Under the pieces are notes generated by a model that was not told where the DNA came from, made no database searches, and worked only from the letters and a program-made list of their open reading frames with translations. Made by a program: the position numbers and the translations under genes. Positions 2,720 through 25,552 of a DNA stretch of 64,000 nucleotides are shown here, in pieces (the first letter of the stretch is position 1; every line of letters begins with the position of its first letter). This DNA comes from Thermoanaerobaculia bacterium (GTDB taxonomy: Bacteria; Acidobacteriota; Thermoanaerobaculia; Multivoradales; Multivoraceae). The stretch lies in the NCBI GenBank assembly GCA_963664405.1, contig OY761158.1:5152001-5216000 (forward strand). The letters are read 5' to 3'.

Positions 2720-2821
2720 GTGCACCCTGGCTGCACTCTCGGGGAAACGTTCGATCTGGTCGATGACGCTGAAGACACTTTGCCGGAAGCGCTCACCAAG
2801 TTCGAGTCGCTCGCCCTTGTA
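2720..2821 (-). pseudogene. Possible ParE/RelE-type toxin fragment
   Basis: Y..ERLELGERFRQSVFSVIDQIERFPES resembles ParE N-terminal helices; no start, no C-terminal half. Confidence 0.4.
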
Positions 2822-3073
2822 CCTCGCGAGTCGCCTCGCGAACGAGGTGCCACCCAGATATTTCAGGGACGCGGCGATAGGCCCCAAGACGTAATGGGAC
2901 ACGTGCTCCCTCTGACAGTGGGCTCGCCACCGATCGAAACTCCAGCATTCTAAGCTCACGACGGAGCCATGCGAGGTGGAGTGGAGAGGCGCCTCGCGCC
3001 TATTCCGATGGAGCGTCGCCGCATTGACTCTGCGGGATGTCGCCGCCCCACGACGACCAGAGAAACCTGAAGT

Positions 3074-3390
3074 TCAGGTCGTCACGAAGGGCAGAGAGGG
3101 CGGGAAAGACCCCGGAGGAAAGTCCACAGGCACACACGCCCTCAGTTTCTCGCAGGCCTCGCGATAGACAGCCACGAAGCGTCGATAGGCTGCTTGGAAT
3201 TGTCGCGCGCTCTGCCAAGTCGCCGCATGCACGAGCGGCGCCGGGGACTTGGCGCTCGATCGTGGCCTCCCATGAGGATCCTGGCGCAGGATCCCCTCTC
3301 TCCCAAGAGGTCGCCTGCCACTCCGTCGCTGCGTTTCCGCAATGTGGTGAGCACGCTCCTGGAACCAGGCAACACGATCTTCTGGCTCCC
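3074..3390 (-). pseudogene. C-terminal remnant of an IS200/RAYT-like HUH transposase, cut by the adjacent IS
   Basis: GILRQDPH..SPAPLVHAA..AYRRFVAVYREACEKLR..FPPGSFPPSLPFV tail; frame enters the IS end at 3391. Confidence 0.55.
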
Positions 3391-3451
3391 TGTCCCTACC
3401 AGAAACTCCATCCGCGCAGCAGTTTCGGACGTCACACTTGCCAGGAGTATC

Positions 3452-3505
3452 CTTGGTGTGATGATTCATCTTCTAGGACTTGGTGTGATGATTCGTCTTC
3501 TAGGA
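3452..3505 (+). repeat. 27-bp tandem duplication (1 mismatch) over the transposase start
   Basis: CTTGGTGTGATGATTC(A/G)TCTTCTAGGA x2 at 3452-3478 and 3479-3505. Confidence 0.95.
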
Positions 3506-4513
3506 GTATTGCTTCGCTCAGTACTGGCGGCACTCCAGACTCGCCGCCAGCTCGCCCTCGAAAACCTGGCTCTTCGACAGCAGCTCTCAGTGCTTCAGGC
3601 GGCGCGGCGGCCGTCTTTGACCAACCTCGATCGGGTCTTCTGGACCATTCTCCGGCGCCGATGGAGTCATTGGACGCACGCGCTCGTGATCGTGCAGCCC
3701 GAGACCGTCGTCCGCTGGCACCGGCAGGGATTCAGGCTGTACTGGCGATGGAAGAGCCGAAATGGCAGCGCTGGACGGCCGAAGATAGACCCGGAGACCC
3801 GAGCCTTGGTTAGAAGGATGAGCTTGGCCAACCCGTTCTGGGGCGCACCGAGGATTCATGGCGAGCTCCTCAAGCTAGGGATCGAGATCTCGGAGACGAC
3901 GGTCGCCAAGTACATGCCGAGGTCGCGCCGGCCACCCTCTCAGTCCTGGCGAGCATTTCTGGACAACCATCTCAAGGATCTGGTCTCGATCGACTTCTTC
4001 ACGGTCCCCTCGGCGACATTCCACGTCCTTTTCGTCCTCATCGTCCTCAGCCACGACCGCCGGCGCATCCTTCACTTCAACGTTACCGAGCATCCCACCG
4101 CGGAGTGGACCGCTCAGCAGATGGTTGAAGCGTTTCCTTGGGACACAGCACCGCGCTATCTCCTCCACGATCGCGATGCGGTTTTCGGAAACAACTTCCG
4201 GTCGCGTGTGGCTGGGCTCGGAATGGCCGAGGTGCTCATAGCACCACGATCGCCTTGGCAGAATCCCTATGCTGAGCGCGTCATCGGCTCCATGCGGCGA
4301 GAATGTCTCGATCACGTTATCGTGCTGAACGAGGCCCATCTCCGCCGGATTCTGCGTTCCTTCGTCACCTACTACCATCGCTCAAGAACCCATCTCTCCT
4401 TAGACAAGGATGCTCCTGAGGCACGAGAGGTGCAGGCTCCGAGGATGGGACGCGTGGTGGAGTTGCCCGAGGTCGGTGGGCTCCATCACCGGTACGAACG
4501 CCGGGCGGCGTAG
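3461..4513 (+). CDS. Integrase-core (rve) DDE transposase
   Basis: WGAPRIHGEL, IDFF, YLLHDRD, PWQNPYAERVIGSMRRECLDH. Confidence 0.92.
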   Translation: MIHLLGLGVMIRLLGVLLRSVLAALQTRRQLALENLALRQQLSVLQAARRPSLTNLDRVFWTILRRRWSHWTHALVIVQPETVVRWHRQGFRLYWRWKSRNGSAGRPKIDPETRALVRRMSLANPFWGAPRIHGELLKLGIEISETTVAKYMPRSRRPPSQSWRAFLDNHLKDLVSIDFFTVPSATFHVLFVLIVLSHDRRRILHFNVTEHPTAEWTAQQMVEAFPWDTAPRYLLHDRDAVFGNNFRSRVAGLGMAEVLIAPRSPWQNPYAERVIGSMRRECLDHVIVLNEAHLRRILRSFVTYYHRSRTHLSLDKDAPEAREVQAPRMGRVVELPEVGGLHHRYERRAA

Positions 4514-6311: not shown

Positions 6312-8315
6312 GGTCGGCGCGGAAATAAGTTTCCAGTATCTGGGGTGACCATACCACTGCCCCCTTCTTCAGCCACCGCATAATCCTCCGGTACGCGCCT
6401 TGTTTGCAAGGTTTAGAGCTAGCATAGCCCTGCCCGCATTTGGTATAGTTTCCCCTGTCACCTCTTTTGGAAGGGGAACTATACCAAATGGTACGAGCCG
6501 AAGATCGTGATGCAACAGTGCGCGAGCTCTTGATGAGCGAACAGATGGCCACCATGGATGAGCTCAAGGACGCCATGGGAACCCGAGCCACCATGACGGT
6601 CTACCGTTCGCTGTCTCGATTGGGCTATTTGGCCAGCTACTCGGATCGAGGGCGGTTCTATACCTTGAACGAGATTCCCGATTTCGACGATCTGGGTTTG
6701 TGGTCGTGCGGTTCGGCGAGGTTCAGTCGGCATGGCAGCCTCCTCGAAACTGCGGTGGCTGCCGTGGACCGGTCCGCTGCCGGCTATACGGCTTCTGAGC
6801 TCGAGCTCCTGCTGCAGGTCGAGGTCAAGCACGCGATGTTGCACCTCGTTCGTCGCAAGAGAATCGTAGGATCCAGAGTTGGGAAGAGGTTCGTATACTT
6901 GTGCTCGGAAACAGGGCGCCGTCGTCAGCAGAAGCTGATGCGCAACGAACGGCAGGCTCTCCAGGATGTAGCTGCCAGCCTCGTTCCAGAAGTGCTCCCC
7001 GAGGAGCTCAGGGCTGCCATCGTTTTATTCTTCAGCCTGCTAGACGAACGCCAGCGGCGGCTATTCGCTGGCCTGGAAGCGACCAAGCTCGGGCATGGCG
7101 GCGACCGGAAGATCGCCGATCTTCTGGACCTGGACCCTCATACAGTCGCAAAAGGACGTCGCGAGCTCTTCGGCGGCTCCGTGGAGCGCGGAAGAGTTCG
7201 AAGAGCAGGCGGTGGCAACCAACGAGTGGAAAAAAAACGCCCGCGATAGTCGATGGAATCCATTCCATACTCGAGGCCGATATAGCTGGTGATCCCATGT
7301 CATCAAGAAGATGGACGCACGAGACCGCTGCAAGGGTGGCCCAATGCCTTGCCGAACGCCTTGACATCATCGTATCGGCTACGGTGGTGCGTCGATTGCT
7401 CGCAGACCTGAACTATTCCCTCAAGAGCAATAGGAAATGTCTGTCTTCGGGGAACTCCCCAGATCGTGATGCACAGTTCAAGGCCATCAAGCAACTGCGC
7501 GAGGATTTCACAAGCGCTGGCGACCCGATCATCAGCGTCGATACGAAGAAGAAGGAGCTGATCGGTCGGTTCAAGAACCAGGGACAGACATGGTGCCGCG
7601 AGGCCAAGCGGGTCAAGGATCACGACTTCCGGTCCGAAGCTCTCGCCATCGCCTCCCCCTATGGGATCTACGATCTTCAGAGGAACTTCGGCGTTCTCGT
7701 CGTCGGACAGTCGTCGGACACGCCGGAGTTCGCCGTCAACAGCATCGCGACCTGGTGGCTCAACTACGGTCGATCTCAGTATCCGGCGGCTCAGCGTCTC
7801 CTCATTCTTGCTGACAGCGGCGGAAGCAACGGCGCACGGCTTCGAGCCTGGAAGAAGTACCTCCAGGAGAAGCTCTCAGACAAGTGCGGCCTCATCATCA
7901 CCGTAGCCCACTATCCAACCGGCACCAGTAAATGGAATCCCATCGAGCACAGGATGTTCAGCGAGATCAGCAAGAACTGGGCCGGAGTTCCTCTCGAGAG
8001 TTTCGAGATCCTGGTCAACCTCGTCCGCAACACGACGACATCCACCGGACTGCGCGTCGAGCCGTGCCGTGATCAACGCCAATACGAGAAAGGGGTCAGG
8101 GTATCGGACAAGGAAATGCTGCAGCTCGCGGTGGCCAGGAGCGACTTCCTAGGAAAGTGGAACTACACCCTCTCGCCGAGACCGCGAACCGAGCAGGAAG
8201 AGCTTGCCCCACAGCCTGGGCTCAGCTCACCACCACCTCCAATGCAGCGACCGCCCTGTGGCGCCTCGGCCTCACACGCTCCGGCGATAATGTGAAGTTA
8301 TTTCCGCGCCGACCC
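6311..8315 (+). mobile_element. ISAzo13-family insertion sequence
   Basis: Perfect 18-bp IRs GGGTCGGCGCGGAAATAA / TTATTTCCGCGCCGACCC, flanked by TTA at 6308-6310 and 8316-8318. Confidence 0.9.
6488..8295 (+). CDS. ISAzo13 transposase in two ORFs joined by a -1 shift at A8 (7230-7237)
   Basis: ORF1 LDERQRRLFAGLEA; ORF2 PIISVDTKKKE, ADSGGSNG, GTSKWNPIEHRMF. Confidence 0.88.
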
Positions 8316-8497
8316 TTAGGTAGGCGCGGATCTCGGCATGCGCGTCGGGCGGAGCCGAGGAGGAGGGCGGCCTGGAGGACGGTGAGAGGCAGGCCTTGGT
8401 CGAAGAGCTGGTCGACAATGAGACGGTCGCCGTGGTGGAAGCGGTGAGGGGTGTCGGGAAGGAGTCGATAGAGGCGGAGTAGGTGGCTTCGGGTCAT
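8316..8497 (-). pseudogene. Small hypothetical gene coupled to istB, truncated by ISAzo13
   Basis: ATGA overlap with the istB stop; LYRLLPDTP...ALLLGSARR runs into the IS end. Confidence 0.5.
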
Positions 8498-8799
8498 GAG
8501 CGTCGTCGTGCTGCGCTCCGCTTTTTGGCCCGGTCCTTGGCCTTTTTTTCAGCAGCCTCCTTGGCCTCCTCGCGGCGATAGGAGTTAGCCTCGATCTTGA
8601 CGATCTCGGCGTGGTGTGTGAGTCGATCGACGAGGGTAACGACGCAGGAGGCGTTGGGAAAGACCTCGCCCCATTCGGCGAAGGGCTTGTTGGTGGTGAG
8701 AAGAATGGGCTTGTTGCCGTATCTCCTGGAGACGACCTCGAAGAGGAGATCCGCGTGGCGGTGGTCGTAGGAGAGATAGCCGAGCTCATCGATTGCCAA
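8494..8799 (-). pseudogene. istB: IS21-family helper ATPase, C-terminal fragment
   Basis: IDELGYL Walker [24 protein letters not shown]; Walker A half missing. Confidence 0.88.
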
Positions 8800-9034: not shown

Positions 9035-9058
9035 GTGTTACGGGATGATGGAGTTTGG

Positions 9059-9334
9059 ATGGAATTTGAATGGGACGAGACCAAGAACCTAGCCAACATC
9101 CGCAAGCATGGCGTCAGCTTCGACACCGCCAAGCGCATCTTCGAGAGACCCATTGCAACTTGGATCGACCATCGCAAGGACTACGGCGAGGATCGCCGTA
9201 TGAGCATTGGACGGTTGGAACATGGGGCGCTAATCGTGGTTGCCCATACCGATCGGGACGGGCGTATCCGCTTGATCTCCGCCCGTCCGGCGTCCCGCAA
9301 GGAAAGGCAGGCTTACCATGAGCGGATACGATAG
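9059..9334 (+). CDS. brnT: BrnT family type II toxin
   Basis: MEFEWDETKNLANIRKHGVSF...YGEDR...IRLISARPA. Confidence 0.93.
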   Translation: MEFEWDETKNLANIRKHGVSFDTAKRIFERPIATWIDHRKDYGEDRRMSIGRLEHGALIVVAHTDRDGRIRLISARPASRKERQAYHERIR

Positions 9335-9599
9335 CCCCCTCACTCCCGGACAGATCGCGGCCATGAAGGACGAGAGCATCGACTTCAGCGATATTCCCGA
9401 ACTGGACGAGGAGTTCTGGAAACGGGCGAAACTCATCGAACCCGATCACACCGAGCAAATCACCTTGCGTGTCAAACGCTCCGTGTTGGCTCATTTCAAA
9501 GCCTCGGGAAAGGGCTACCAGAGCCGCATTAACCGCGTGCTCGAAAGCTACGTGCGGGCCACTCAACAGGAGTCCCGAGGGGGGGGAGTGAGAGAATGA
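9318..9599 (+). CDS. brnA: BrnA family antitoxin
   Basis: IDFSDIPEL, ITLRV..VLAHFK..GKGYQSRINRVL; overlaps the toxin. Confidence 0.92.
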   Translation: MSGYDSPLTPGQIAAMKDESIDFSDIPELDEEFWKRAKLIEPDHTEQITLRVKRSVLAHFKASGKGYQSRINRVLESYVRATQQESRGGGVRE

Positions 9600-9711
9600 G
9601 CCGAACGGATTGGGAGGAAGCATGAGTGTTGAGCCAATACGAAGGACGACGACAGCGAAGTAATTATCGCCGCAATCTGGGGAAAGCTCTATGATTCAGT
9701 CACTTGAAGGG

Positions 9712-9951
9712 ATGGACTTGACCGACCGCATCCGCGAGATGTCCGGACGGATCGCGAAGCGGCTCAACAGCATCAAGACGGAAGAGGCGACAAAGACCGC
9801 GCTGGTCCTGCCGTTCATCACGCACGTGCTTGGGTTCAACGTATTCGATCCGGACGAGGTCGTCCCCGAGTACACGGCCGACGTCGGCACCAAGAAAGGC
9901 GAGAAGGTCGACTACGCCATCGTCTCGAACGGGTCCCCGATCATGCTGATT
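9712..9951 (+). pseudogene. HsdR_N-type restriction endonuclease domain protein, truncated before the catalytic ExK
   Basis: TEEATKTALVLPFI..FDPDEVVPEYTADVGTKKGEKVDYAI..PIMLI, then unrelated sequence. Confidence 0.85.
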
Positions 9952-10100
9952 CTCTTTCTGGGGACACCACGTCGATCTGTCGCAACATCGTTTCTCGGTC
10001 GCCCGATTGTACGCCGACGCAGACAAGGAGATGCAAAGGGTGAAGGCGGATACGGTCGCGGCACCCGACGCGCTGACACAGATGTGGCAACGACAGCAGC

Positions 10101-10472
10101 GTGAGCGAGAACGGCAGCGCGGGCCGGAGCGGGACTTTGGCCCGAGCCGGTAGCGGCGGCAGCCAGACAGCGCCCGACCGCCCAGAAAGGCGCCTGGCGA
10201 TTTACCTCCGCGATGACATGGCCTGCGTCTACTGCGGGACTGGTATTGAAGAATCTTGCAGCCTGACGCTTAACCACGTCCGACCACCCAGCAAGGGCGG
10301 CACTAACGCCGCCTCAAATTTCGTCACAGCCTGCCGCCGCTGCAGCTCATCACGCGGCGTCAAGAGCGTGCGAGCCTTCGGCGGCCAGCCCGCCGTGACT
10401 CGCGTCAGACGTCAGACACGGCGGACGCTTCCGCTGGCAGAAGCTCGACGCTTGATTGCCTCGCGCGGCTAG
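10101..10472 (+). CDS. Small phage-type HNH protein with degenerate active site
   Basis: IYLRDDMACVYCG...LNHVRP..GG...NFVTACRRCSSSRG. Confidence 0.75.
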   Translation: MSENGSAGRSGTLARAGSGGSQTAPDRPERRLAIYLRDDMACVYCGTGIEESCSLTLNHVRPPSKGGTNAASNFVTACRRCSSSRGVKSVRAFGGQPAVTRVRRQTRRTLPLAEARRLIASRG

Positions 10473-12181
10473 AAATGACCGCCTACGTCCGCGACGCACG
10501 CCGTTCACGCTGTTGGCGCAACGGAGCTAACCTGTCTACGAAAGTGAATCAAGCCCAGCGCAGGACTTTCCGCCGAAGCGATGTGCGGCGGGTATGGGAG
10601 CGCCAAGGTCGAGTATGTGTGCTCTGCGCGCGAGCGATTCCATTCGACCTTATGCACGGCGACCACGTCAAACCATGGAGCCATGGCGGAGCCACCTCCC
10701 TGGAGAACTGCCAAGCCCTGTGCGGAAGCTGCAACCTCAGAAAGGGCTCGCAGCCGCAGCAAGTGACCGAGCGATCCTTCAAAGCGAACCAGATCGCCGC
10801 AGGATGCGGTGAGTTGCGGCGTTGGCAGAAGGAGGCGCTTAGTGAAGTCTTTACCAAAATCCTGAAAGAACCAGTACTGGTTGAGGCGTGTCCTGGCGCT
10901 GGGAAGACTCACTTTGGGCTTGAGGTTGCCTACAGGATGATTCAAGACGATTCGATTAGCCGGGTATTCGTGTTTGTCCCGAGCCTGGGAATCGCAGACG
11001 GCTGGCTGGACGCGGCGTCCTCAACTAATGAGACTTCACCGACGGTGCCATTACTTGGGCCACGCAAGTGGAGGCCGGTACAGCCAATCTTGGAACGGTG
11101 GGCAGGAGCAGTCGCTACTTATCAGAGCCTATTCGCCGCCCCCGACATGTTTTTGGCCCATGCTGCTGATCCAGGGCACCGAACGCTCGTGATCTTCGAC
11201 GAGATTCATCATGCGGGGGCTGACTCTGGCTGGGGGATCAGCGCACAAGAGGCATTCGGACGAGTCGCGACCGCGATTCTGAGCCTGACTGGTACACCGT
11301 TTCGCACCAATCGCGATGCGATCGTCCTCGTCCCAAGTGAGGGTGGGTCAGCAAGCCCTCACTATCGCTACGGGTATGATTGCGCCCTTGATGATAACGC
11401 CTGCCGACCGGTGCAATTCGTCTTCGGGCGCGGAAGCACGATGTTTCGATCCGAGGACGGAGTTGTCCATGAGGTCAGTTTTGATGACGAGCTAACCGCG
11501 CTTGGCGATCGTCGCCGCCTCAGGACCGCTCTCGAACACGTTGAGACAGGATCGATCGCCCATTTGTTGCTGGCGGATGCGAATGAACACATCCTGAATC
11601 TACGCCGAAGCGGTGATGCGGATGCGGCCGGACTCGTAGTGTGTGTGGATTGCAGCCACGCCGATCGCGTTGCCGAATTCATGGGAACCGAAGTGTTGAG
11701 CCGACGTCCCGTTGTGGCTTGCTCGAGGCTCTACGACCCCGGCGATCCAGAACCAGCGAACGCGATCAAGAGGTTTCGCAGGAGCCACCAGCCCTGGATT
11801 GTGGCGGTGAACATGGTGTCGGAAGGAATCGACATCCGCCGATTGCGTGTGGTGGTCTACCTGACAAACAGGCTCACCGCGCTGAGCTTTCGACAAATTG
11901 TCGGTCGTGTGGTGCGTATCGATCCAGCCAATGTTGATGACCACGGAAGAGTGTACCTACCGGCAGATCCGAGCCTAACATCGATGGCGCGCATGATAAC
12001 GACGGAGGTCAAGCTTCTGCCTCCACCGATGGTGCTCGAACGTAACGGAAGAGAAATAGGGCCCGTTCGCATTAGCGATGATGGTAAATCGGTTGAACGC
12101 GTTGCGTTCGAGTCGCTTCGCTCTGTGGGGCAGCGCGGTGCTGTGGCGGATTCCAAAGGACGTCGGGCGGATGAGCGACTA

Positions 12182-13420
12182 GTACACGTGAACACAATTA
12201 GTGGAACGTATTATCTGTGGCATACTAGACACCGAGGAGGTCCTCGGTATGCCCAGAAAGAGCCCCTTTACTATCGTTCTTTCCCCGGGAGAACGTGCGT
12301 CCCTGGAGACGAGAGCACAGAAGTATACGTTACCGTATCGGGATGTCATGCGGGCCAAGCTCGTCCTGCTGGCCGCCGAAGGCTGGGAAAACAAGGACAT
12401 CGCGGCCGCCCTTCAACTCACGCGGCCCAAGATCTCGAAGTGGCGAAAACGCTTCTTCTATCAACGACTTTCGGGATTAGAGGATCAATCCCGCGGAGGC
12501 CGCCCCTCCGATTTCCCCCCCTGCGATCATCGCTGAAGTCAAAGCGCTGGCCTGCCAGCTGCCCGCCACGCAGGGACTTCCTCTGTCGCGGTTCAGCCGC
12601 CGCGAGTTGCGTCGCCATGTCCTCGAGCAGGGCATCGTCGCCGAGATCTCGGGCACGACCATCTGGCGCTGGCTGTCGCAAGACGCGATTCGACCGTGGA
12701 GCTACCGGAGCTGGATCTTCCCTCGCGATCCCGATTTCGCCGACAAGGCCGGCCGAGTCCTGGATCTGTACGACGGTCGGTGGAAAGACAAACCCCTCCA
12801 GGAGGGGGATTTCGTCCTCTCCGCCGATGAGAAGGCGGGCCTGCAGATCCGCAAGCGACGCCATCCGAGTCGGCCGCCTGGCGCGCGCCAAGCGCTTCGC
12901 TTCGAGCACGAGTACCGCCGCCGCGGCACCTGTGCGTACCAAGCGGCCTGGGATGTCCATCGGGCACGCCTCTTTGGCCACGTCGTCGAACGATCGACGA
13001 TCGACTGCTTTGATGCCCTGGTCGCTTCGGTCATGGGCACCGAACCCTACAGATCGGCGAAGCGAGTCTTCTGGATCGTCGACAACGGCACGGTCCACCG
13101 CGGCCAGCGTGCTGTGGACAGGCTCCACTCCCAGTGGCCCAAACTCATCCTCGTGCACTTGCCCGTGCACGCCAGCTGGCTGAATCAAATCGAGATCTAC
13201 TTCTCCGTGCTCCAGCGAAAGGCCCTCACACCCGACGACTTCGACTCCCGCGAAGACATCACCCAGCGAATCCTCGACTTCCAAGATCACTACCAGACAA
13301 TCGCTCAGCCATTCCAGTGGAGCTTCACCCGTAATGACCTCGAACGCCTCCTCCAACGGTGCCCCTCTTTCGCTCATGCAGCTTGAGAGAATACGTTCCA
13401 GAACTTCCGTCCCGGAGTAC
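12182..13420 (+). mobile_element. IS630-family insertion sequence in a CTAG target
   Basis: Ends GTAC...TGGAACGTATT / AATACGTTCCA...GTAC; TA duplicated at 12180-12181 and 13421-13422. Confidence 0.92.
12249..13386 (+). CDS. IS630 transposase in two ORFs with a +1 shift at TTTCCCCCCC (about 12512-12521)
   Basis: HTH ORF, then SADEK, EHEYRRRGT, IVDN, HASWLNQIEIYFS. Confidence 0.88.
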
Positions 13421-13537
13421 TAGTCGAGCTGGCGCGAGCCTACATCAGGAGACAGGGACTGACGGGAACCGATCCCGTGAGTCTGGCGCTTGCTGCTTCG
13501 GAGAATGAGAGGCTCCGTCATGCACTGGAACAGTGCG

Positions 13538-15013
13538 ATGTCTGAACAAGTCAAGGGTCCAACGGTCGTCCTCGTTGGAGGCGCTATCACCCTCGATTCA
13601 GGGGAGCGAATCGACTCCAGGCAACCCCTAGCAGATGACAAGTGGGACTTCATCCTTCGGTCAGCACTGGCTGGTTCTGAGCTTTGGTGGGAGGCCGCGC
13701 GGAAGCTGGTGGATGTCATCCTCGACGAAGACCAAACGGATGGAGCTTGGGCGCTTACCTGGGCGCCCAAGACGCTGTGGCAGCCGAAGGCTGACGGTTC
13801 CGCGAAACGCATTCGGATACGGGCCGCTCTCCAAAAGTGCGTGTCGTTGATGGATCTGCGGTATCAGATAGAGATAGGCGGCTACGGTAAGGTAGTGCCC
13901 CGTCAAGTCAAAATAAACGCATCCAAGACGACAGCGCGATACCGTGTGCTAGAACACCCCTTCCGGTACGAGCACTTGGTAGCCTCTCGGCCTCCGACGG
14001 TCTTCTTTGGTGCACACCCCACGGCGTGGGACCAGGAAGGGTTATCGCCATTTGGTGATGTTCTAAGAAAGTGGCCGAACACGGTGTTCGTGCTGGCCCA
14101 CACGCCCCTGATGGAAGCCACGATTGCCAGGGTGCAATCCTGGTTCTCGAACGGACGAAAGCCGCGAAACAGGAATTCTAACGTTAGTAGGAGACAGGAG
14201 AAAGCAGATGAAGAGTTCTTCGCATCGATGAAGGATTTCAGCCACCACAGGCCAATGGTGGTGGATGCGGATTTCAGCCTTACGTATTTCCTTGACAGCG
14301 GGTCACCAGGAAGCGCGGCTGACCTGGACGCTGCGCTAACCTTCGTCTTGAGCCGTTATGACCTGAATATTGGACTGTGGGATCTCGCTCGTGATCCGGG
14401 ATTGCGTGAGAGCTTGCTGTCTCCTGAAGAACTTGAATCTGCGCCGTCCCATCAGGCCTCGATGCCGGTCAAGCTGAGTGCTATCGCGACTGAAGCGAAG
14501 TTGGCATGGGAGAAGCAACGGCGATCGGAAAGGGTTGCCCGACGACAGCTTCATAACTCGGTGTGGCCCCTTCTCAAAGACCGGGAATGGCGAACCTTGA
14601 ACCGCAAATCTGAAGGTAGGACCTACGTGCTTCCGAAGGGTAAGCCCGTCAAGTGGGCCGATATATATGATCCGTCACCAATCCTCTACTTTGCGCTGGA
14701 TGTGACCATGCAACAGGCGGTACTGCGCCTAAAGGCAGCACCGTTCGGATTCGAAGGCATACCGGAGTACCTTCATGAGCACGGCGACGGACTACGAAGA
14801 ATAACTGGCGAGAGGCCTACTGAAATGGTCATTTGTCGCTTTCAAGATCATGGATGGAAAAGAGAACTTGGTGACTGGGATCAGACGGTCCAAGTCGTAG
14901 ATGCCGTCGTCAAGTTTCTTGATCTTACGATTTCCACTTTGAGGTCGAAGGCGGAAGAGCAGTTTGCCGACTTCAGATCGAAGAACCCACCGCGAGAAAC
15001 GACCAGGTCATGA
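13538..15013 (+). CDS. Hypothetical protein (491 aa), translationally coupled to the HNH-helicase
   Basis: Long ORF with island-like composition; ATG overlaps the restored helicase stop (ATGTCTGA); no recognised motif. Confidence 0.75.
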   Translation: MSEQVKGPTVVLVGGAITLDSGERIDSRQPLADDKWDFILRSALAGSELWWEAARKLVDVILDEDQTDGAWALTWAPKTLWQPKADGSAKRIRIRAALQKCVSLMDLRYQIEIGGYGKVVPRQVKINASKTTARYRVLEHPFRYEHLVASRPPTVFFGAHPTAWDQEGLSPFGDVLRKWPNTVFVLAHTPLMEATIARVQSWFSNGRKPRNRNSNVSRRQEKADEEFFASMKDFSHHRPMVVDADFSLTYFLDSGSPGSAADLDAALTFVLSRYDLNIGLWDLARDPGLRESLLSPEELESAPSHQASMPVKLSAIATEAKLAWEKQRRSERVARRQLHNSVWPLLKDREWRTLNRKSEGRTYVLPKGKPVKWADIYDPSPILYFALDVTMQQAVLRLKAAPFGFEGIPEYLHEHGDGLRRITGERPTEMVICRFQDHGWKRELGDWDQTVQVVDAVVKFLDLTISTLRSKAEEQFADFRSKNPPRETTRS

Positions 15014-15313
15014 AGTCCAGCGCCTCAAGGCCCGCGGTTTCCCTAGTCAGGGTACCGACCAGATCGGGGTCTGAACTCCTGGCCGGAAAGAAGCTAGACG
15101 CGCCGCCGCCACGCCAGATCAGCCGGACGTACAAGCAGGCCCAGAAGGCGCGTCACAAAGGGACCACACCGCTGCCATTGGACTTAGGCTCGACAACGAC
15201 CAAGCCGAGATGAAGGCCAAACTGAACCGCCGGCTGGCGAGGCGCTCGCTGAAAGCATCGCGCGAGAACACGCCGCCATGAGTCGCCTGAGCAACCAGCT
15301 GCACGAGGACGCC

Positions 15314-16694
15314 GAGCTATGGTCGAAAGTTGTGTATGCGGAGGTTGAAGGCGGCGTATCCTGAGGTTGTTCAACGACCTTGGGACCTTCCGGAGAAGGA
15401 GGATACGCCGTGGTTCAGGGTAACGCAGAGCGCTTCAGAGAGCCAGGTACAGCGAGTGTGGATGACGCCTTGACCGAGGTGCTGCGACAAGGAGCCCAGG
15501 AGCTGCTCCGGGTGGCGGTCGAGGCGGAAGTGGGCGAGCTGCTCGAGCACTACGCAGAGGAGCGCGACTCAGCCGGTAGACAGAGGCTGGTGCGCAACGG
15601 GCATCTGCCGGAGCGGTCGATTCAGACTGGAATCGGCGACGTCCCGGTGCGAGTCCCGCGAGTGCGGGACCGGGGTGAGACAGAGGAGCCGATCCGCTTC
15701 GAGTCGAAACTGGTGCCGCGCTACCTTCGCAAGTCCAAGAGCATCGAGGAGCTGCTTCCGCTGCTGTACTTGCGCGGCATCTCGACGGGCGACTTCGGTG
15801 AGGCACTCAGCGCTCTGCTTGGGCCCAACGCGAAGGGTCTGTCGGCCTCCACGATCAGCCGGCTGAAGAAGGACTGGCTCCAGGAATTCGAGAGCTGGTC
15901 CAAGCGCGACCTGGGTCGCCAGCAGATTGTCTACCTGTGGGCCGACGGGATCTACTGCAACGTCCGCTTCGACGACGCCCGGCTATGCCTCCTGGTGCTG
16001 ATCGGCGCTGACGAAACGGGCAAGAAGCGACTCTTGGCGGTTCAGGAGGGCTATCGCGAGAGCGAGCAGTCTTGGCGGGAGATCTTGATGGATCTCAAGC
16101 ACCGCGGCGTAGCCGTCTCGCCCAAGTTGGCGGTCGCGGATGGTGCCCTGGGCTTCTGGAAGGCGATCACGAAGGTATTCGGCGACACCCGCACCCAGCG
16201 TTGCTGGATGCACAAGACCGGGAATGTCCTGAACTCCCTGCCGAAGTCGACGCAGCCCAAGGCGAAGAAGGCCTTGCACGAGATCTGGCAGGCGGAGACG
16301 AGGGCGAAAGCCTATGAGGCGTTCGATGCCTTCGTAGAGACCTACGAAGCGAAGTACCCGCGAGCCGCCGAGTGCCTGACTAAAGACCGGGACGAGCTCC
16401 TCGCCTTCTACGACTTTCCCAGCCAGCAGTGGCCTCATCTCCGAACGACCAATCCCATCGAATCGACGTTCGCCACCGTCCGTCTTCGCACTGCCAAGAC
16501 CAGGGGATGTCTGTCGCGAGAGACCATGCTCACCATGGTCTTCAAGCTCACTCAGAGTGCCGAGAAACGATGGCGACGACTCAGAGGGTTCCACCATCTC
16601 GCTGAAGTTGTCGGGGGAGTCCAGTTCGTCGACGGAGAACATCCATCAACCATCGCCGCCTGATGCCCCCGTACCCAACATTTGACAATAACTC
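15314..16694 (+). mobile_element. IS256-family insertion sequence
   Basis: Imperfect IRs GAGCTATGGTCGAAAGTTG / CAACATTTGACAATAACTC; perfect 9-bp TSD GAGGACGCC at 15305-15313 and 16695-16703. Confidence 0.95.
15410..16663 (+). CDS. IS256 transposase
   Basis: RNGHLPER, YLWADG, VADGALG, QRCWMHK, LRTTNPIES; RBS AAGGAGG before GTG. Confidence 0.95.
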   Translation: MVQGNAERFREPGTASVDDALTEVLRQGAQELLRVAVEAEVGELLEHYAEERDSAGRQRLVRNGHLPERSIQTGIGDVPVRVPRVRDRGETEEPIRFESKLVPRYLRKSKSIEELLPLLYLRGISTGDFGEALSALLGPNAKGLSASTISRLKKDWLQEFESWSKRDLGRQQIVYLWADGIYCNVRFDDARLCLLVLIGADETGKKRLLAVQEGYRESEQSWREILMDLKHRGVAVSPKLAVADGALGFWKAITKVFGDTRTQRCWMHKTGNVLNSLPKSTQPKAKKALHEIWQAETRAKAYEAFDAFVETYEAKYPRAAECLTKDRDELLAFYDFPSQQWPHLRTTNPIESTFATVRLRTAKTRGCLSRETMLTMVFKLTQSAEKRWRRLRGFHHLAEVVGGVQFVDGEHPSTIAA

Positions 16695-18049
16695 GAGGAC
16701 GCCAGACGGCGGTTCGAAGACCTGGGGCGGATTCTACTGGGTCGCGTTACTACGTTCCGGGATCATCCCACCGCTCAGGTACGTCCCGACTTCTCGCCGA
16801 ACGTCTTCACAGGCCGATCAGTTACCGACGCAGACATCACCGGCGATGTACATATTGGTTATCAGAACAACCACGGGGAGTTAACAGGCATCGCCGTTGC
16901 CGAGGTGGGAGGTTCACGCACTGGTCTGATCGGGCCCGACTACGAGAAGCTGGAGGCTCTCGCGCTATCGATGGCCAAGGTCCAGCCGTTCCAATTAACA
17001 GCGAGCCTCAAGTTCTTGCGGAGGCAGATCTTCGAGTGGATACTGGAACGCCATCGTGGGCAGAGTTCCGTAGGGTGCGTGGACTATGTTCTGCGGGTGT
17101 TGGAGAGCAAGGCGGCGGAACATCGCCTGCTCTTTCCGGTGTCTGACCTCCACGTGCAGTCCACACTGACGCTCGGGTCGGTCACGGTGTCGACTTTCCC
17201 GGAGAGCATCTTCGAGAGGCTTGAATCCAAGCAGATTGATGGCCAGTCTTCCGCCGCACATGCTGAGTTGTGCCAGTCGATGCGGAGAGACTTTCAGGGT
17301 CTCGCGGTCGCGGAGACGTGCGTATTCGGAGAGCCGATTCGAGCGAAAGAAATCGCTAGTGACCGAGTGGAGTTGGCGGTCGGAGTACTTCGCTTCTTTG
17401 CACCAAGCCATATAGTTCCTGGGGTTACATCAAGGGTTGCTCTCTGGGGTTACGCGCCGATCCGGACCTCCCGGGTGTTCGTTGTCGACGCGTCGGGGAA
17501 GTTCTTGATGACTACCGGTGCGATTATTGACCGCCCAGGGACCATGGTAGTTGGCGATGGTACGCGTGACATCTTGCTCGATGCTGGCCTTTCGGAAGCA
17601 TGCGATATCGTCGGCCGCGATTCACGCACCGACCTTGAGGAGGCGCTTCTGACCGGTATGGTTACGTTCGGTCGGGCTGCACTCACCCCAGATCTCGGAG
17701 AAAGGATGATCTGGTACTGCGCGGGGCTGGAGTCGATTCTGCTGAAAGATAGCTCAGAAGCGATTCTGAGCAACTTGAGCGACCGACTGGTGATGTTTGG
17801 CTATGACACGGTTGACGAGCGCACTGCCGCGTCGAAGGATATTAAAAAGGCGTATTCGCTTCGGTCACGGTTCGTCCATCACGGTGGCGAGATCGAAGAT
17901 GGTGAGATCGTGACCCAATTCGCTCGTCACGGTCTGCTGCTCTTCAGCCGAATCGCCAAGGACGTCGCCCGCTTCAGCAGTAAGGTCGAGCTCCTTGACT
18001 ATATTGACCGCATGAGATTGTCAGGTGTCTCGCAGTGAGTGCCTTCAGC

Positions 18050-18150
18050 ATGCACAAAGGATCGGTTTTGCAACGATTCGGTGACGGACGTGGTTTCAAG
18101 GGCTTAGGCGTTGCAAAACCCTATTGCAGAATCAATGTATTTTGCAATAC
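18050..18150. promoter_or_regulatory. res-like recombination site upstream of the resolvase
   Basis: Repeated half-sites GGTTTTGCAACG, CGTTGCAAAACC, TTGCAGAA...TTTTGCAA. Confidence 0.65.
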
Positions 18151-18159
18151 CATTACGCA

Positions 18160-18714
18160 ATGTTGCTTGGTTACGCTCGCGTTTCCACCGATGAGCAGGA
18201 CACCGCCGCTCAAGTCGCCGCGCTCGAAGCCGCTGGCTGCGAGCGCATCTTTCGCGAGAAGGCTTCCGGCGGTCGTTGGGACCGCCCCCAATTCCTCCGG
18301 CTCCTCCATCAACTCCGCGCCGGGGATGTGGTCGTGGTCTGGAAGCTGGATCGCCTGTCGCGCTCTCTGCGCGACCTGCTCACCATCATGGAGCAGCTCG
18401 GGGAAGCCGGAGCCGGATTCCGCAGCTTGACCGAAGCCATCGACACAACCACTGCGGCAGGCCGCATGATGATGCAAATGGTGGGAGCCTTCGCGGAGTT
18501 CGAGCGCGCCATGCTGCGGGAACGCACTCAGGCCGGAGTCGATACCGCCCGGCAGCAAGGCCGCGTCGGCGGTCGCCCCCCCAAGCTCTCCCCGCAACAA
18601 CAATCCGAGATTCGTAAGATGGTTTCCGAAGGCGGGAAAACAGCCGCCGCTGCTGCACGCCTCTTCAACGTCCATCCAGCCACCGTCTCGCGGCTGCTGG
18701 AGCGAGAGCCCTAA
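18160..18714 (+). CDS. Serine recombinase (resolvase/invertase)
   Basis: LGYARVST, VWKLDRLSRS, FAEFERAM, C-terminal HTH. Confidence 0.95.
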   Translation: MLLGYARVSTDEQDTAAQVAALEAAGCERIFREKASGGRWDRPQFLRLLHQLRAGDVVVVWKLDRLSRSLRDLLTIMEQLGEAGAGFRSLTEAIDTTTAAGRMMMQMVGAFAEFERAMLRERTQAGVDTARQQGRVGGRPPKLSPQQQSEIRKMVSEGGKTAAAAARLFNVHPATVSRLLEREP

Positions 18715-19679: not shown

Positions 19680-19754
19680 TGGAGCCGACGGGCGGATTTG
19701 AACCGCCGACCTGCTGATTACGAATCAGCTGCTCTACCACTGAGCTACGTCGGC
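19680..19754 (-). tRNA. tRNA-Thr(CGT)
   Basis: GCCGACGTAGCTCAGTGGTAGAGCAGCTGATTCGTAATCAGCAGGTCGGCGGTTCAAATCCGCCCGTCGGCTCCA; complete cloverleaf with CCA. Confidence 0.98.
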
Positions 19755-20847: not shown

Positions 20848-23370
20848 TCACCAAGCATCGCGTCGGAAAACCTCACGCCAACGTTCCCCAGGATCCTCGA
20901 AGCGGACGCCGGCAGGGTCGAAACGCTCGGGCTCGAAAGGCTTGCCGCCGAGCCACTCAAGGAGCATCTCGCGCTCCGGATGCCTCTCGTCGGCCATTGC
21001 GGCGACGAGCTCGAGATAACCCGGAGTGCTACCTACGTCCTCGGGCGGGCAAGCCCTCTCGCCTCCAGTGCAACGAGGATAACCCTCATCCGCCTCGCTG
21101 GGTACGATCGCCTCCAGCGAGATCTCGTGCTGCCAATTGTCCCCGAAGTCGTACTGGTAGGTGATCGAGGGCTGATCAAAGGTCAGGAAATCGGCGATCG
21201 GCTGCTCCCAGCCCGGCAGGCACTCGACGTCCTCGTCGGGCATTCCGATCTCCACTTCCTCGCCGGTTTCGGGGCTCTGAACGAAGAAGCCGTGCAGGTG
21301 ACTATCGGTCCACCCCATGGCGTTCTGGACGGCCACGTGCAAGTCCCAGAACGAGCTTGCGTAGGGCAACTCGATGCGCCGCCAGATCACTGGGGCGATG
21401 TCGAGGAGCTCGATACGAAGCCGGCAGATACCGCTTGCCACCCGGCCAGTGACTCCGCGGGACCGGCTGCGCTCACGCGCCGCCTTGCGACCCGCTGCGT
21501 CAATCTTGCCGCGAGTCTTGCGCAGCCACTCGATGGCGCCCGGGACCGATCTCCAGCTCTCTTTCAATTCCTCGCACTCGAGCCACGCGAGCATCGATTC
21601 GCTCAGCGGACCATAGCTCGACTTGGGCTTCTTCTTCTTGCGGCCGGTTAGGAAGTCTGCGATGAGAGGTGCATCGCGGTAGGCGGGCTCTAGCGCGCGA
21701 CGTGCTGCTTTGGTGTCGCCGAGCGCGAAGTGAGCCAGCGCCTCGCTGAATTCGAGGCTGAAGAACCGTCGGGAGCCATCGACCGTGTGAATGATCGCCA
21801 GGGCTTCTGTGTAGGCACCGTCGCAGAGCTTTTGAGCGACTAGGATCGGGCGGACACCCGAGCGATCGGCCGGGTCGAGCTCCAAGAGGACCGAGATCAA
21901 AGAGTCATCCCCGCTCTCGCTCTCCTCGTTGGGATTCTCGATGCCGAGCTCGAGCAGGAGAAGCGCGGCCTCAGAGGAATCGAGATCGGCAAGGGGTGGC
22001 AGTGACGAGCTTTCGCCGGCCCGCGACCACGCACCGGTGATGATCGCTCGACCCCGCTTCAGCAGAGGCAGCAATACACCTCGTGTATGCCAGCGCGCTC
22101 CGGACGACGGCAGCTCGAGGGCGGCGAGAGTCACGTCGCGGAGGATCGTCAGGCTCCCCAGGCCCCCCGGAGTCTCTTCGAGGTAGTCGAGCCAGGTTTC
22201 GACGACGCTCGGAAACCAGTACTGGAGAGCGAGGATCGTCGTCTCGTCGCGGGGCCATGGTAGGTTCCGCCATCCCTCTTCGAGCCTCGCCTGCTGAGTC
22301 GGAGCAGTCAGGACACTGCCTAGGGGCGTGACCTCGACCTCGTAGCGCGGCACCGGCAGGGCTACCTCCCGCTGGACGAGATCCCAGAAGCGTGCCAGAA
22401 CCTGCTCTTCCGGCCACGTCGAGGTGTTGAGGAAGGTGGTGCGGTAGGGGGCTGCGATCACTTCGCGCATCAGGCCTGCGGGGCCGCCTTCGTCGTCGAG
22501 TCCGGCACGTTCGAAGCGAGCCAGCCAGAATCTAGCGCGGGCTTGCGCACGATCCGGCTCGTCGCAGGAGAGCAGCATGGTGACCTCCAGTGACGACAGC
22601 GCCGGGTGATCGGGATCGTCGCGCTGGGCGTTGGCGAAGCACTCCCAGGCGAGATCCCAGTCTCCCGAGTCCGCTTTGATGCTCGCTCTTCGCATCCAGA
22701 CTGCTGCGCGCAAAGGCGGGCGAAGCTCTTTCGTGAGCCGCTCGAGCGCCTGCTCCTTCTTGTGTCGGTATTGGAGGCGGTCGTAGGTATCGATCAGGAC
22801 GTCGAAAGCGTCTTCGTAGCGAGCTCCCAGGCGCGCAAGTCGGTCGGGGGGCTGATCGAAGATAGGCTCGACGAGCGCAAGCGCCCGTTTCGGTTGGTCC
22901 AACGAGAGGCAACGTTTGGCGAGGTCGCAGCGCACCTGAGCTGGCACGTTAGCGCTGGCCCCCGCGCGCTTCAGTTGCTCGACCGAGAGCACATCGCTGA
23001 CGAGGGGCCACAGCTCCTCGGTGGTGAGGGCAGGGGTGTCGGCTGCGAATCGTGCGCAACAGCGCTTGTACTTGATTCTCGAACCGCAGCTGCAGGGGTC
23101 GTTTCGCCCCGGCTTGGGCAATGGGGACGATTGAAAACCGTGAGAAGGGAGCGGTGTTACATCCCAGATGGTCGCCGAGAGATTCGTAGCGAGGGCTTTG
23201 AGCCGACCCGGCTCGACCTGGGCCGCGTGGGGCAGCGTTTCGGCCAGCGACGTCTTCACGTGCATACGAAGATGCTCGAAATCCTCTCTCGACACAATCT
23301 CGCGAACGCTACTCTCAATCAGACTGAGCAGTACGTCAGGATCGAGGAGGGGGTCGTTCGCGGTCGTCAC
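20848..23370 (-). CDS. SEC-C motif + TPR-like + pRiA4b ORF-3-like domain protein
   Basis: GRNDPCSCGSRIKYKRCC; helical middle; IWRRI..LHVAVQNAMGWTDSHLH..YQYDFGDNWQH..CPPEDVG. Confidence 0.85.
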   Translation of the reverse strand: MTTANDPLLDPDVLLSLIESSVREIVSREDFEHLRMHVKTSLAETLPHAAQVEPGRLKALATNLSATIWDVTPLPSHGFQSSPLPKPGRNDPCSCGSRIKYKRCCARFAADTPALTTEELWPLVSDVLSVEQLKRAGASANVPAQVRCDLAKRCLSLDQPKRALALVEPIFDQPPDRLARLGARYEDAFDVLIDTYDRLQYRHKKEQALERLTKELRPPLRAAVWMRRASIKADSGDWDLAWECFANAQRDDPDHPALSSLEVTMLLSCDEPDRAQARARFWLARFERAGLDDEGGPAGLMREVIAAPYRTTFLNTSTWPEEQVLARFWDLVQREVALPVPRYEVEVTPLGSVLTAPTQQARLEEGWRNLPWPRDETTILALQYWFPSVVETWLDYLEETPGGLGSLTILRDVTLAALELPSSGARWHTRGVLLPLLKRGRAIITGAWSRAGESSSLPPLADLDSSEAALLLLELGIENPNEESESGDDSLISVLLELDPADRSGVRPILVAQKLCDGAYTEALAIIHTVDGSRRFFSLEFSEALAHFALGDTKAARRALEPAYRDAPLIADFLTGRKKKKPKSSYGPLSESMLAWLECEELKESWRSVPGAIEWLRKTRGKIDAAGRKAARERSRSRGVTGRVASGICRLRIELLDIAPVIWRRIELPYASSFWDLHVAVQNAMGWTDSHLHGFFVQSPETGEEVEIGMPDEDVECLPGWEQPIADFLTFDQPSITYQYDFGDNWQHEISLEAIVPSEADEGYPRCTGGERACPPEDVGSTPGYLELVAAMADERHPEREMLLEWLGGKPFEPERFDPAGVRFEDPGERWREVFRRDAW

Positions 23371-23432
23371 GGCGGCAGCTTCGAGTGTATGCGCATACGC
23401 CCTGAGTCCGCTAGCAGGTCTGGGGCAGCGTC

Positions 23433-24791: not shown

Positions 24792-25552
24792 GAGGTGTCC
24801 TCTCCGATGCGGTTGATCATCGCTGCCGCCCGCCCGGCGCCGAAGCCGTTGTCGATGTTCACCACAGTTACTCCGGCAGCGCAGCTGTTGAGCATGCCGA
24901 GGAGCGCAGCGATTCCTCCGAAGCTGGCTCCGTACCCCACTGAGGTGGGCACCGCGATCACCGGCTTGCCAATCAAGCCCGCCACCACGCTCGGAAGCGC
25001 TCCCTCCATGCCGGCGACGACGACAAGGATGGTTGCTTCGTCAAGCTCTTCGCGACGGCCGATTAGGCGATGAACGCCCGCGACGCCGACGTCGTTGACG
25101 CGCTTCACTTCATTGCCAAAAGCCTCGGCCGTGATCGCCGCCTCTTCCGCAACCGGAAGATCGCTGGTGCCGGCAGTGACGATGGCGATGGGTCCGCGCC
25201 CGGTACGCGGCGAGGGGGTGCGTTGCAACAAGGCGGTGCGCGACAGCCGGTCGAAGCTCACCTCGGGGATGGCGGCGAGAAGGGCCGCTCCCGCCGCTTC
25301 GGAGACGCGGGTCGCGAGCACGGTCTGGTCGTGCTTGTCGATCTCGTGGAAGAGGGCGATCAATTGCTCCTGCGTCTTGCCGGCGGCGAAGATCACCTCA
25401 GGGTAACCGCTGCGCAGAGCGCGGTGATGGTCGACGGTGGCGAAGCCCAGGTCGGCGAAAGGGAGATCACGTAGCGACCCCATCGCTTCGTCGACAGCGG
25501 TCTCTCCCCGCGCGACGGCTTCGAGCAGCCGGCGTATGGCTTCGGGATCCAT
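24788..25552 (-). CDS. larB: Nickel pincer cofactor biosynthesis protein LarB
   Basis: AGTSDLPVAEEA, DVGVAG, AGMEGALPS, PTSVGYG, VNIDNGFGA. Confidence 0.95.
   Translation of the reverse strand: MDPEAIRRLLEAVARGETAVDEAMGSLRDLPFADLGFATVDHHRALRSGYPEVIFAAGKTQEQLIALFHEIDKHDQTVLATRVSEAAGAALLAAIPEVSFDRLSRTALLQRTPSPRTGRGPIAIVTAGTSDLPVAEEAAITAEAFGNEVKRVNDVGVAGVHRLIGRREELDEATILVVVAGMEGALPSVVAGLIGKPVIAVPTSVGYGASFGGIAALLGMLNSCAAGVTVVNIDNGFGAGRAAAMINRIGEDTS

Follow-up and report, generated by a model that had tools for sequence, protein, structure and literature searches.

A candidate two-gene HNH nuclease-helicase module, interrupted by an IS630-family insertion, in a Thermoanaerobaculia genome

The locus described here raises the question of what two adjacent genes do together when one of them is broken and the other resembles no annotated family. 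They lie in a stretch of 64,000 nucleotides (nt) from a Thermoanaerobaculia bacterium of the phylum Acidobacteriota (assembly GCA_963664405.1, contig OY761158.1, positions 5,152,001 to 5,216,000), which is called the window; coordinates are counted from its first letter. The first gene encodes an N-terminal HNH nuclease domain fused to a superfamily 2 (SF2) helicase and is split by an insertion sequence (IS) of the IS630 family. The second encodes a protein of 491 amino acids (aa), hereafter the partner. The pair looks like an uncatalogued module of the nuclease-helicase two-gene kind, for which a defence function may be proposed by analogy with other such pairs. The best overall explanation, given a probability of roughly 45%, is a translationally coupled two-gene operon whose products would form a complex and act as a nuclease-motor against invaders, and which the IS element would have inactivated in this genome. 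The parts of the locus are as follows.

10475..12181, + strand: 5' part of the HNH-SF2 helicase gene, codons 1-569
12180..12181, no strand: left TA target-site copy, read directly; these two bases also complete codon 569 (CTA)
12182..13420, + strand: IS630-family insertion sequence of 1239 bp, transposase in two frames
13421..13422, no strand: right TA target-site copy, read directly
13423..13545, + strand: 3' part of the helicase gene, codons 570-609 and the stop codon (13543-13545); conserved C-terminal tail
13538..15013, + strand: partner gene, 491 aa; predicted RecA2-like lobe without ATPase motifs, long helix and C-terminal alpha+beta domain

The insertion element in the helicase gene

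A sequence-only reading of this DNA had held that the 902-aa open reading frame (ORF) at 10475-13183 is an artefact of an IS630 element inserted into a CTAG site at 12182-13420, and this proved correct: the ORF is the helicase gene reading through into the inserted element. The IS630 family typically targets CTAG and duplicates TA; here TA stands on both sides of the element, and CTAG is left after excision. Removal of 12182-13422 also rejoins the reading frame as ...DERL|VELARAYIRRQG...EQCDV*, in which 569 and 40 codons make up 609. The terminal inverted repeats are imperfect and span ~35 nt (arms 12176-12216 and 13386-13426, 41 nt, 76% complementary), and the transposase matches DDE_3 (E 1.1e-15), HTH_29, HTH_23 and HTH_28 in Pfam, which places the element in the IS630 family. 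As the helix-turn-helix ORF (12201-12536) and the DDE_3 transposase ORF (12607-13386) lie in different frames, the transposase may need a (programmed) frameshift or may be defective. A run of seven C (12515-12521) is located near the end of the former ORF. One more copy of the element, 88% identical and partial, is present in the genome.

Locus L002, from another Acidobacteriota metagenome-assembled genome, contains an unbroken 609-aa helicase ORF followed by the partner gene (IS-free operon at L002 8179-11470). Its helicase is 99.6% identical to that of the window over residues 1-569 and 100% identical over the 40-residue tail, and the DNA of the two loci is 99.6% identical over 10307-12183 and 13419-14986 only, with unrelated flanks. 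This identity ends at both ends of the cassette, which moves as two genes alone. The IS630 site is empty, with a single TA, in L002 and in contigs from public sequencing runs. Among the run contigs over 10000-15400, a joint from 12177 to 13419, with 1241 nt skipped and 6 ambiguous letters, occurs in all four runs. Contigs of 3616 and 3645 nt span it in X7 and X8, where IS630 is largely uncovered. In runs X1 and X3, IS-bearing and IS-free forms are both present (depth of the IS contig 7.5 and 6, of the flanks 16 and 11), the joint being weak there, with a shorter side of only 24 letters. The empty site of L002 and the bridging run contigs indicate that the insertion is real, precise and polymorphic in nature, and the intact allele is still circulating.

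In the restored gene, the helicase stop codon overlaps the partner ATG at 13538 by 8 nt. This overlap had likewise been read from the sequence, and a stop/start overlap of 4 or 8 nt recurs in L007, L009, L012, L013 and L016. As IS630 sits at codon 569/570, the partner start codon of the window is now separated from the helicase stop codon.

Pairing of the two genes and their predicted complex

The partner alone served as the query that retrieved sixteen loci (L002-L017). A helicase gene lies immediately upstream of the partner in nine of them (L002, L007, L008, L009, L011, L012, L013, L014 and L016), that is, in 9 of the 14 loci with enough upstream DNA; L010 and L015, in which the partner starts at the contig end, stand outside this count. 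Three of the five exceptions are visibly decayed: in L003, which shares window positions 13805-15048 at 99.7%, the partner is 5'-truncated and has an rve transposase directly upstream; L006 holds only partner residues 1-301; and L017 holds a fragment of ~125 residues. In the other two, L004 and L005, the partner is full-length (510 and 521 aa, respectively) and is preceded by transposase genes. No helicase orthologue was found at E <= 1e-10 in the whole genomes of L003-L006. In a sample of 401 genomes from the phylum of L007, one helicase orthologue was found (G405, 67% identical), with the partner adjoining, so that the two-gene order is kept in that genome as well as in the nine loci. The partner profile matches 2 of these 401 genomes, the second match being a weak fragment with two stops (G631), and three helicase paralogues (40-42% identical, matching from residue 112 on) occur in genomes of the sample without a partner-profile match. 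Linkage is also indicated indirectly by six further helicase/partner proteins that share the length of their longest contig (15683, 34523, 6189, 5715, 6306 and 54162). An all-against-all comparison of the neighbouring ORFs revealed no third conserved gene; beyond resolvases and transposases, only shadow ORFs recur among the matches listed.

The two genes diverge at different rates. Identity to the window, given as helicase/partner, is 70/51% in L008, 67/34% in L007, 65/33% in L009, 63/26% in L016, 62/34% in L014, 68/35% in L012, 63/37% in L013 and 68/59% in L011. Because the partner thus appears to evolve about twice as fast as the helicase, a pattern of variable specificity or sensor subunits, such a role of the partner is plausible. 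In L013, a second, diverged paralogue of the partner is arranged convergently with the first (1260-2570 on the + strand and 2771-4396 on the - strand), and in L016, the start of another partner copy (6781-6909) directly follows the first partner gene.

Structural prediction supports the binding of the partner to the helicase in a complex. Helicase residues 111-609 (41-row alignment) and the partner (70-row alignment) were folded together in three runs alongside three controls, a check that the sequence-only reading had put forward. The interface score ipSAE was 0.65, 0.68 and 0.67, against 0.00 for the best control. The mark used for this score is reached by 58 of 80 solved complexes and by 2 of 110 mismatched pairs, counts that serve only as a rough guide because custom alignments were used. 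At least 86% of the contacts are common to the runs, and the predicted local distance difference test value (pLDDT) of the partner is at least 81. On the helicase side, the predicted interface comprises residues 374-383, 408-410, 433-440, 563 and 580-603, with the tail as its core; on the partner side, it comprises residues 52-66 and 268-293, including the invariant G279 and D282. It coincides with the most conserved motif of the partner and with the conserved tail of the helicase, which is encoded beyond the IS630 site. As the tail is encoded after the insertion point, IS630 swaps the last 40 residues for read-through sequence and removes the predicted docking site. Searches turned up no solved complex resembling the helicase-partner pair, so that recall of a known structure by the predictor seems unlikely.

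Both predicted interface segments share a short motif, LA..(D/E/N)(N)P.LR..LL, which may reflect a pseudo-symmetric helix-helix contact. An hhalign comparison of the partner with the helicase revealed no homology (probability 2%); it paired helicase residues 580-603 (13453-13524) with partner residues 276-294 (14363-14419), without significance.

The tight gene overlap, the predicted complex and the mobile setting would also fit a toxin-antitoxin-like addiction module, in which a toxic nuclease-helicase is held by the partner as a stoichiometric inhibitor on its C-terminal tail; such a module would chiefly stabilise the carrier DNA, and any effect on phages would arise via abortive infection. 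In line with this, the partner occurs without the helicase in three genomes, no helicase orthologue was seen without the partner, and it is the helicase, not the partner, that is hit by IS630 and by apparent frameshifts in metagenome contigs (L011 at ~233-245, L012 at ~661-668 and ~1719-1731, L013 at ~404-416). The interruption, the frameshifts and the absence of the helicase from those three genomes are also signs that its gene is costly. However, the large effector comes first and the partner second, and antitoxins are typically small, a size that the 491-aa partner far exceeds. The IS-truncated allele keeps the HNH domain and both RecA lobes and loses the predicted partner-binding tail, which should make it more toxic if the partner were the inhibitor, yet it persists beside the intact allele in runs X1 and X3. 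In addition, no PADLOC toxin-antitoxin model matches either protein. An addiction module is considered quite improbable on balance.

The frameshifts of L011 and L012 coincide at DPGDP codons within a G+C-rich stretch; the apparent frameshifts of the three contigs may represent recurrent inactivation or sequencing error.

Domains and relatives of the helicase and the partner

In Pfam, the restored helicase matches HNH (PF01844, E 1.4e-12), ResIII (4.9e-15) and Helicase_C (3.1e-7). The HNH domain occupies residues ~48-92, the RecA1 lobe residues 113-278 (Q motif, Walker A and DEIHH) and the RecA2 lobe residues ~380-482 (motifs V and VI). Conservation was examined in 41 orthologues of 57-74% identity, taken from the best 120 of 4619 proteins scored at E <= 1e-3. 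Invariant in all 41 are C48, C51, D63, H64, N78, C83, C86 and N87 of the HNH domain, which provide the catalytic His/Asn and two CxxC zinc ligand pairs of an HNH nuclease; R115, W117 and Q118 of the Q motif; Walker A (138-145), DEIHH (242-246) and TGTPFR (272-277); motif V (N446 to D453); and motif VI (474-481). The intact N-terminal HNH and the SF2 motifs Q, I, II, III, V and VI, all of which the sequence-only reading had recognised, are therefore present across two RecA lobes, as in ResIII/XPB-like SF2 enzymes. The C-terminal tail is conserved as GLTGTDPxSLALAAxENPxLR and kept in nine loci and the 41 orthologues. Among the matches listed, the taxa with an orthologue at 59-75% identity include Gemmatimonadaceae, Deltaproteobacteria, Binatia, Acidimicrobiales, Pseudonocardia, Streptomyces, Streptacidiphilus and Mycobacteroides abscessus, as named by the sources.

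The closest solved relatives of the motor are archaeal XPB structures, 6p4f (E 3.9e-8) and 5tnu (~4e-8), together with an HsdR fragment, 3h1t. Archaeal XPB works with the nuclease Bax1, and XPB-Bax1, T4 UvsW and T5 D10 process branched or damaged DNA. An alternative is that the cassette serves replication, recombination or repair of a mobile element, in which the HNH-XPB-like translocase would process DNA of this type and the partner would be an accessory loader or regulator. The best PHROG match of the helicase is a phage DNA helicase family (phrog_16, E 3.7e-23), the helicase is very strongly conserved across phyla, and resolvases and transposases surround the loci, all of which would suit such a role. 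Against it, the partner was not found in 50,697 phage records, 72,556 plasmid records or a viral contig collection; the helicase has a match in a single phage, at 32% identity, and its plasmid hits are all below 60%. The plasmid helicase paralogues H1 and H7 have no HNH or a different neighbour, and in one plasmid paralogue that was inspected, the HNH is missing and the 202-aa neighbour is unrelated to the 491-aa partner. Genes for replication or conjugation are not among the conserved neighbours of the pair, and the cassette moves as two genes alone. This alternative is regarded as clearly unlikely.

The partner belongs to a family without annotation. A word-indexed search gave 22 relatives and a profile search 220 cluster representatives (50% identity) at E <= 1e-3, 112 of them at E <= 1e-30; where the sources name them, it is as 'hypothetical protein'. 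The 491-aa protein has no match in Pfam, PADLOC-DB 2.0.0, NCBIfam or PHROGs, and the 70 members of the family alignment likewise gave no Pfam or PADLOC match at E <= 0.01. Across these 70 members, G279, D282 and R290 are invariant within the motif RYDLxxGLWDLAxxPxLRxxLL (273-294), and D26, R28, W50, W51, P187 and T189 are nearly so. Four of 20 scanned members have C-terminal HEAT repeats (824-875 aa), and one of the 20 has a Helicase-associated (HA) domain; these five fused members are P0089, P0108, P0111, P0113 and P0104.

The AlphaFold2 model of the partner is confident (pLDDT 92.0, predicted template modelling score 0.89). For residues 1 to ~280, an exhaustive structure aligner lists almost only RecA2 lobes of SF2 enzymes, all at Z <8, including Ssl2/XPB 5oqj_7 (Z 7.2, root-mean-square deviation (rmsd) 4.7 A, 189 residues aligned), HsdR 3h1t (Z 7.1, rmsd 3.5 A, 151 aligned) and XPB 4ern (Z 6.8, rmsd 3.8 A, 166 aligned). 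Foldseek gave no PDB match at E <= 1e-3 for the whole protein or for the C-terminal domain alone, and none at this threshold in BFVD, where a phage SSL2-like helicase ranks first (probability 0.97, E 5e-3). A sequence-profile search of PDB chains returned one chance-level row (E 0.43), and the ESM Atlas held no usable match. Folded alone, the C-terminal domain reaches pLDDT 94.9. It is weakly similar to PsiB 3nct (Z 5.6, rmsd 3.4 A, 98 aligned) and, at Z 4.8-5.6, to type III secretion chaperone or YbjN-like proteins (DR_1245, SycN/YscB, SicP, SycT, AmyR and ExsC), values in a range where only a common arrangement may be reflected. Bax1 is not among the best 50 fold matches of the partner, an absence that does not exclude it. 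On these models, the partner may tentatively be described as a helicase-type lobe that has degenerated and that a long helix connects with a small alpha+beta domain of protein-binding type. The partner was also considered as an SF2 helicase and rejected, as no helicase Pfam domain occurs in the 70 members, no P-loop is visible in their alignment, and the resemblance is to the lobe only.

The nearest solved HNH is that of E. coli McrA (6ghc, E 4.2e-6), and the helicase also has weak PADLOC hits to HNH domains of type II and type IV restriction endonucleases. Modification-dependent, type IV-like restriction may therefore be asked about, in which the partner would read modified or foreign DNA on behalf of the HNH-translocase, comparable to McrB-McrC or the SauUSI reader. 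The fast divergence of the partner, as in specificity subunits, and the lack of a methyltransferase gene conserved beside the pair would fit. The partner C-terminal domain is weakly similar to the N-terminal DNA-binding domain of McrB (3ssc, Z 4.7, rmsd 3.7 A, 107 aligned; 8ik4 and 3sse also appear among the Foldseek rows, at E > 3), but this resemblance is no better than that of many unrelated rows of the same list. Furthermore, no SRA, YTH, EVE or other known reader domain occurs in the 70 family members, and the HEAT repeats of some members suggest the sensing of proteins rather than DNA. Type IV-like restriction is judged very improbable.

Possible function, mobility and surroundings

As judged from sequence comparison, the module is a rare, recently transferred and horizontally mobile accessory cassette. 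Among 401 Acidobacteriota genomes, the partner profile matches two, namely this genome and G164, the genome of L002. The pair sits in an IS-rich stretch of lower G+C content (0.57-0.60, against 0.62-0.69 further on). Each of the seven long loci (L002-L007 and the window) contains transposases or resolvases. In L003 and L007, a resolvase lies at most 0.5 kb from the partner gene, in L004 ~6 kb away, and the cassette may ride on a resolvase-bearing element. Defence-type genes are found near the pair in the window (BrnT/BrnA and an HsdR_N-like fragment), L016 (a DpdJ-like fragment) and L007 (PDC-M04A/DUF3800), and near the helicase-free partner in L004 (a ZorD/DpdE-like SNF2 helicase) and L005 (a type IIG/DrmMI-like enzyme and an HNH).

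In the favoured explanation, the first gene would supply a 609-aa protein with an N-terminal HNH fused to an XPB/HsdR-like SF2 DNA translocase, and the second would be translated by coupling to the first via the overlapping stop and start codons. Residues 268-293 of the partner would clamp the helicase tail (580-603), touching the RecA2 lobe. The motor would travel on DNA and the HNH domain would cut it, with the partner gating or directing this activity as a sensor or regulator. The module would act on invading DNA of phages and plasmids, as other nuclease-nucleoside triphosphatase (NTPase) defence pairs do, and would be switched off in this genome, where IS630 removes the partner-binding tail and uncouples translation of the partner. 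The defence role itself, taken separately, is given about an even chance. It is proposed because of the nuclease-translocase fusion, the rarity and mobility of the cassette, the asymmetry of the evolutionary rates, and the repeated loss or interruption of the nuclease-motor gene.

Several observations weigh against this explanation. The genomes of L004 (G401) and L005 (G402) keep a full-length partner without a helicase orthologue at E <= 1e-10, so that pairing is not obligatory for keeping the partner, and these two loci, which have the clearest defence neighbours, are the ones without the helicase. Most neighbours of the pair are unannotated or transposases, with defence-type genes in some loci only. 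Conservation of the helicase, at 59-75% from Acidobacteriota to Streptomyces and Mycobacteroides, is unusually high for a defence gene, and the helicase frameshifts in metagenome contigs may be sequencing errors. Since the fold matches are weak, the pseudo-helicase and chaperone-like labels of the partner are tentative. PADLOC-DB 2.0.0 dates from 2023, and a later catalogue may already name the system. The earlier proposal of a defence module is upheld as regards the restored gene, the stop/start overlap, the conserved gene order and the absence of a match in PADLOC-DB 2.0.0, and defence itself stays a hypothesis.

A bolder form of the favoured explanation is that the pair founds a new class of systems against mobile genetic elements, in which a dead 'pseudo-motor' sensor grips the helicase tail and licenses cutting upon detection of an invader, the sensing domain being chaperone-like or, in some members, made of HEAT repeats. 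This form is doubtful. If it were true, the partner would represent a new sensor family of at least 220 clusters (50% identity) in Acidobacteriota, Actinomycetota (including Streptomyces and Mycobacteroides), Gemmatimonadota and other phyla. Confirmation of defence would add a compact two-gene nuclease-motor system and provide a function for a family that no library annotates. The helicase clade is also present in Streptomyces and mycobacterial genomes, where phage resistance has practical interest, and the IS-broken and intact alleles found in the same samples would offer a view of costly nuclease systems being switched off in wild soil bacteria.

Regarding known systems, no full-length match of either gene was found in PADLOC-DB 2.0.0, which includes Hachiman, Gabija, Septu, Zorya, DISARM, Dpd, Pbe and the PDC candidates. 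The helicase has 18 partial hits, the best to PbeA (43.7 bits, ~170 of 672 positions), and the partner has none, so that the claim that the pair matches no named system holds within this catalogue. In the literature searched, no title or abstract beginning describes an HNH-helicase with such a partner. Hachiman (HamA nuclease and HamB SF2 helicase) and its kin are likewise patchily distributed, accessory two-gene operons of a nuclease and an SF2 motor. Complex formation, predicted for the present pair, is a feature shared by the gene products of such systems in the accessible part of a study treating 16 nuclease-NTPase systems (10.1101/2025.07.10.664194), a part in which HNH is not mentioned. 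In contrast to Hachiman, the nuclease here is an HNH instead of PD-(D/E)xK and shares one chain with the helicase, nuclease and NTPase motifs are missing from the second protein, and neither HamA nor HamB is among the PADLOC hits.

Hna, Nhi and SauUSI-type proteins resemble the first gene product in combining nuclease and helicase in one polypeptide, which suggests translocation-coupled cutting. Each of them works as a one-gene system and differs from the present protein in nuclease type and domain order. The present helicase, in contrast, has an obligatory-looking second gene, and no Hna or Nhi is among its 18 PADLOC hits; the SauUSI helicase lobe appears only among the weak fold matches of the partner (7clg, Z 5.5, rmsd 3.9 A, 150 aligned). 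Archaeal XPB-Bax1 also combines a motor, the closest solved one (6p4f, 5tnu), with a nuclease. There, a separate protein supplies the nuclease, and the machine probably acts in repair, whereas the window has an N-terminal HNH fusion in a rare mobile gene and a partner not recognisable as Bax1 among the best 50 fold rows. HsdR, Res and the PbeA/Dnd-associated helicases share the ResIII-type RecA lobes, as seen from the partial match to PbeA and from NCBIfam scores of 37.6 bits for EcoAI-type HsdR (cut-off 550), 29.5 for TIGR04095 (cut-off 600) and 36.6 for another model (cut-off 729). These scores are far below the cut-offs, and genes for a methyltransferase, a specificity subunit or dnd functions do not recur in the neighbourhood, so that the protein is neither an HsdR nor a dnd-associated restriction helicase.

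The other features of the window around the pair are as follows; strand is stated where it was recorded.

1-900: partial ORF of a pentameric ligand-gated ion channel homologue (Neur_chan_LBD 4.9e-15 and membrane domain), a bacterial Cys-loop receptor homologue
3194-4513: rve transposase
6901-8295: ISAzo13-type transposase
8494-8799: IstB fragment
9035-9599: BrnT toxin and BrnA antitoxin (Pfam 1.6e-25 and 6.2e-14), just upstream of the module
9691-10104: HsdR_N-like fragment (first ~70 residues, E 6.7e-4, below the Pfam cut-off)
10101..10472, + strand: small stand-alone HNH gene, 123 aa (Pfam HNH_5 2.4e-10), ending 2 nt before the helicase ATG
15314-16663: IS256-type element (transposase 15380-16663, Transposase_mut 9.8e-65), directly downstream of the partner
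16905-18038: 377-aa ORF without a match in Pfam, PADLOC, NCBIfam or PHROGs and without a relative in any fetched locus
18124-18714, + strand: serine resolvase/invertase, 196 aa (Pfam Resolvase 1.9e-48), ~1 kb from tRNA-Thr
19680-19754, - strand: tRNA-Thr, 4.7 kb from the pair
20848-25552, - strand: 840-aa SEC-C motif/PRiA4_ORF3 protein, then LarC-like (Ni insertion) and LarB-like (AIRC) genes

The small HNH gene, which also matches an IscB-type HNH of NCBIfam below the cut-off (2.3e-13), was considered as a general third component of the module and rejected: its last 59 codons recur only in L002, where the 99.6% identical block begins inside the gene, at 10307, and the other 15 loci hold no relative. 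It may be a lineage-specific third gene. The HsdR_N-like ORF is probably a remnant, as the rest of it looks out of frame. Run contigs of high depth start at 15314, probably the left end of the IS256-type element. The sequence-only reading had linked nuclease-helicase fusions to tRNA-integrated islands, and for the present pair this found no support: a search of the window for a repeat of the 3' end of tRNA-Thr, as an att site, found only the tRNA itself, the tRNA is the only Rfam match over 1-22000, and the nearby recombinase is a small serine resolvase. Beyond tRNA-Thr, the genes at 20848-25552 look like the core-genome side.

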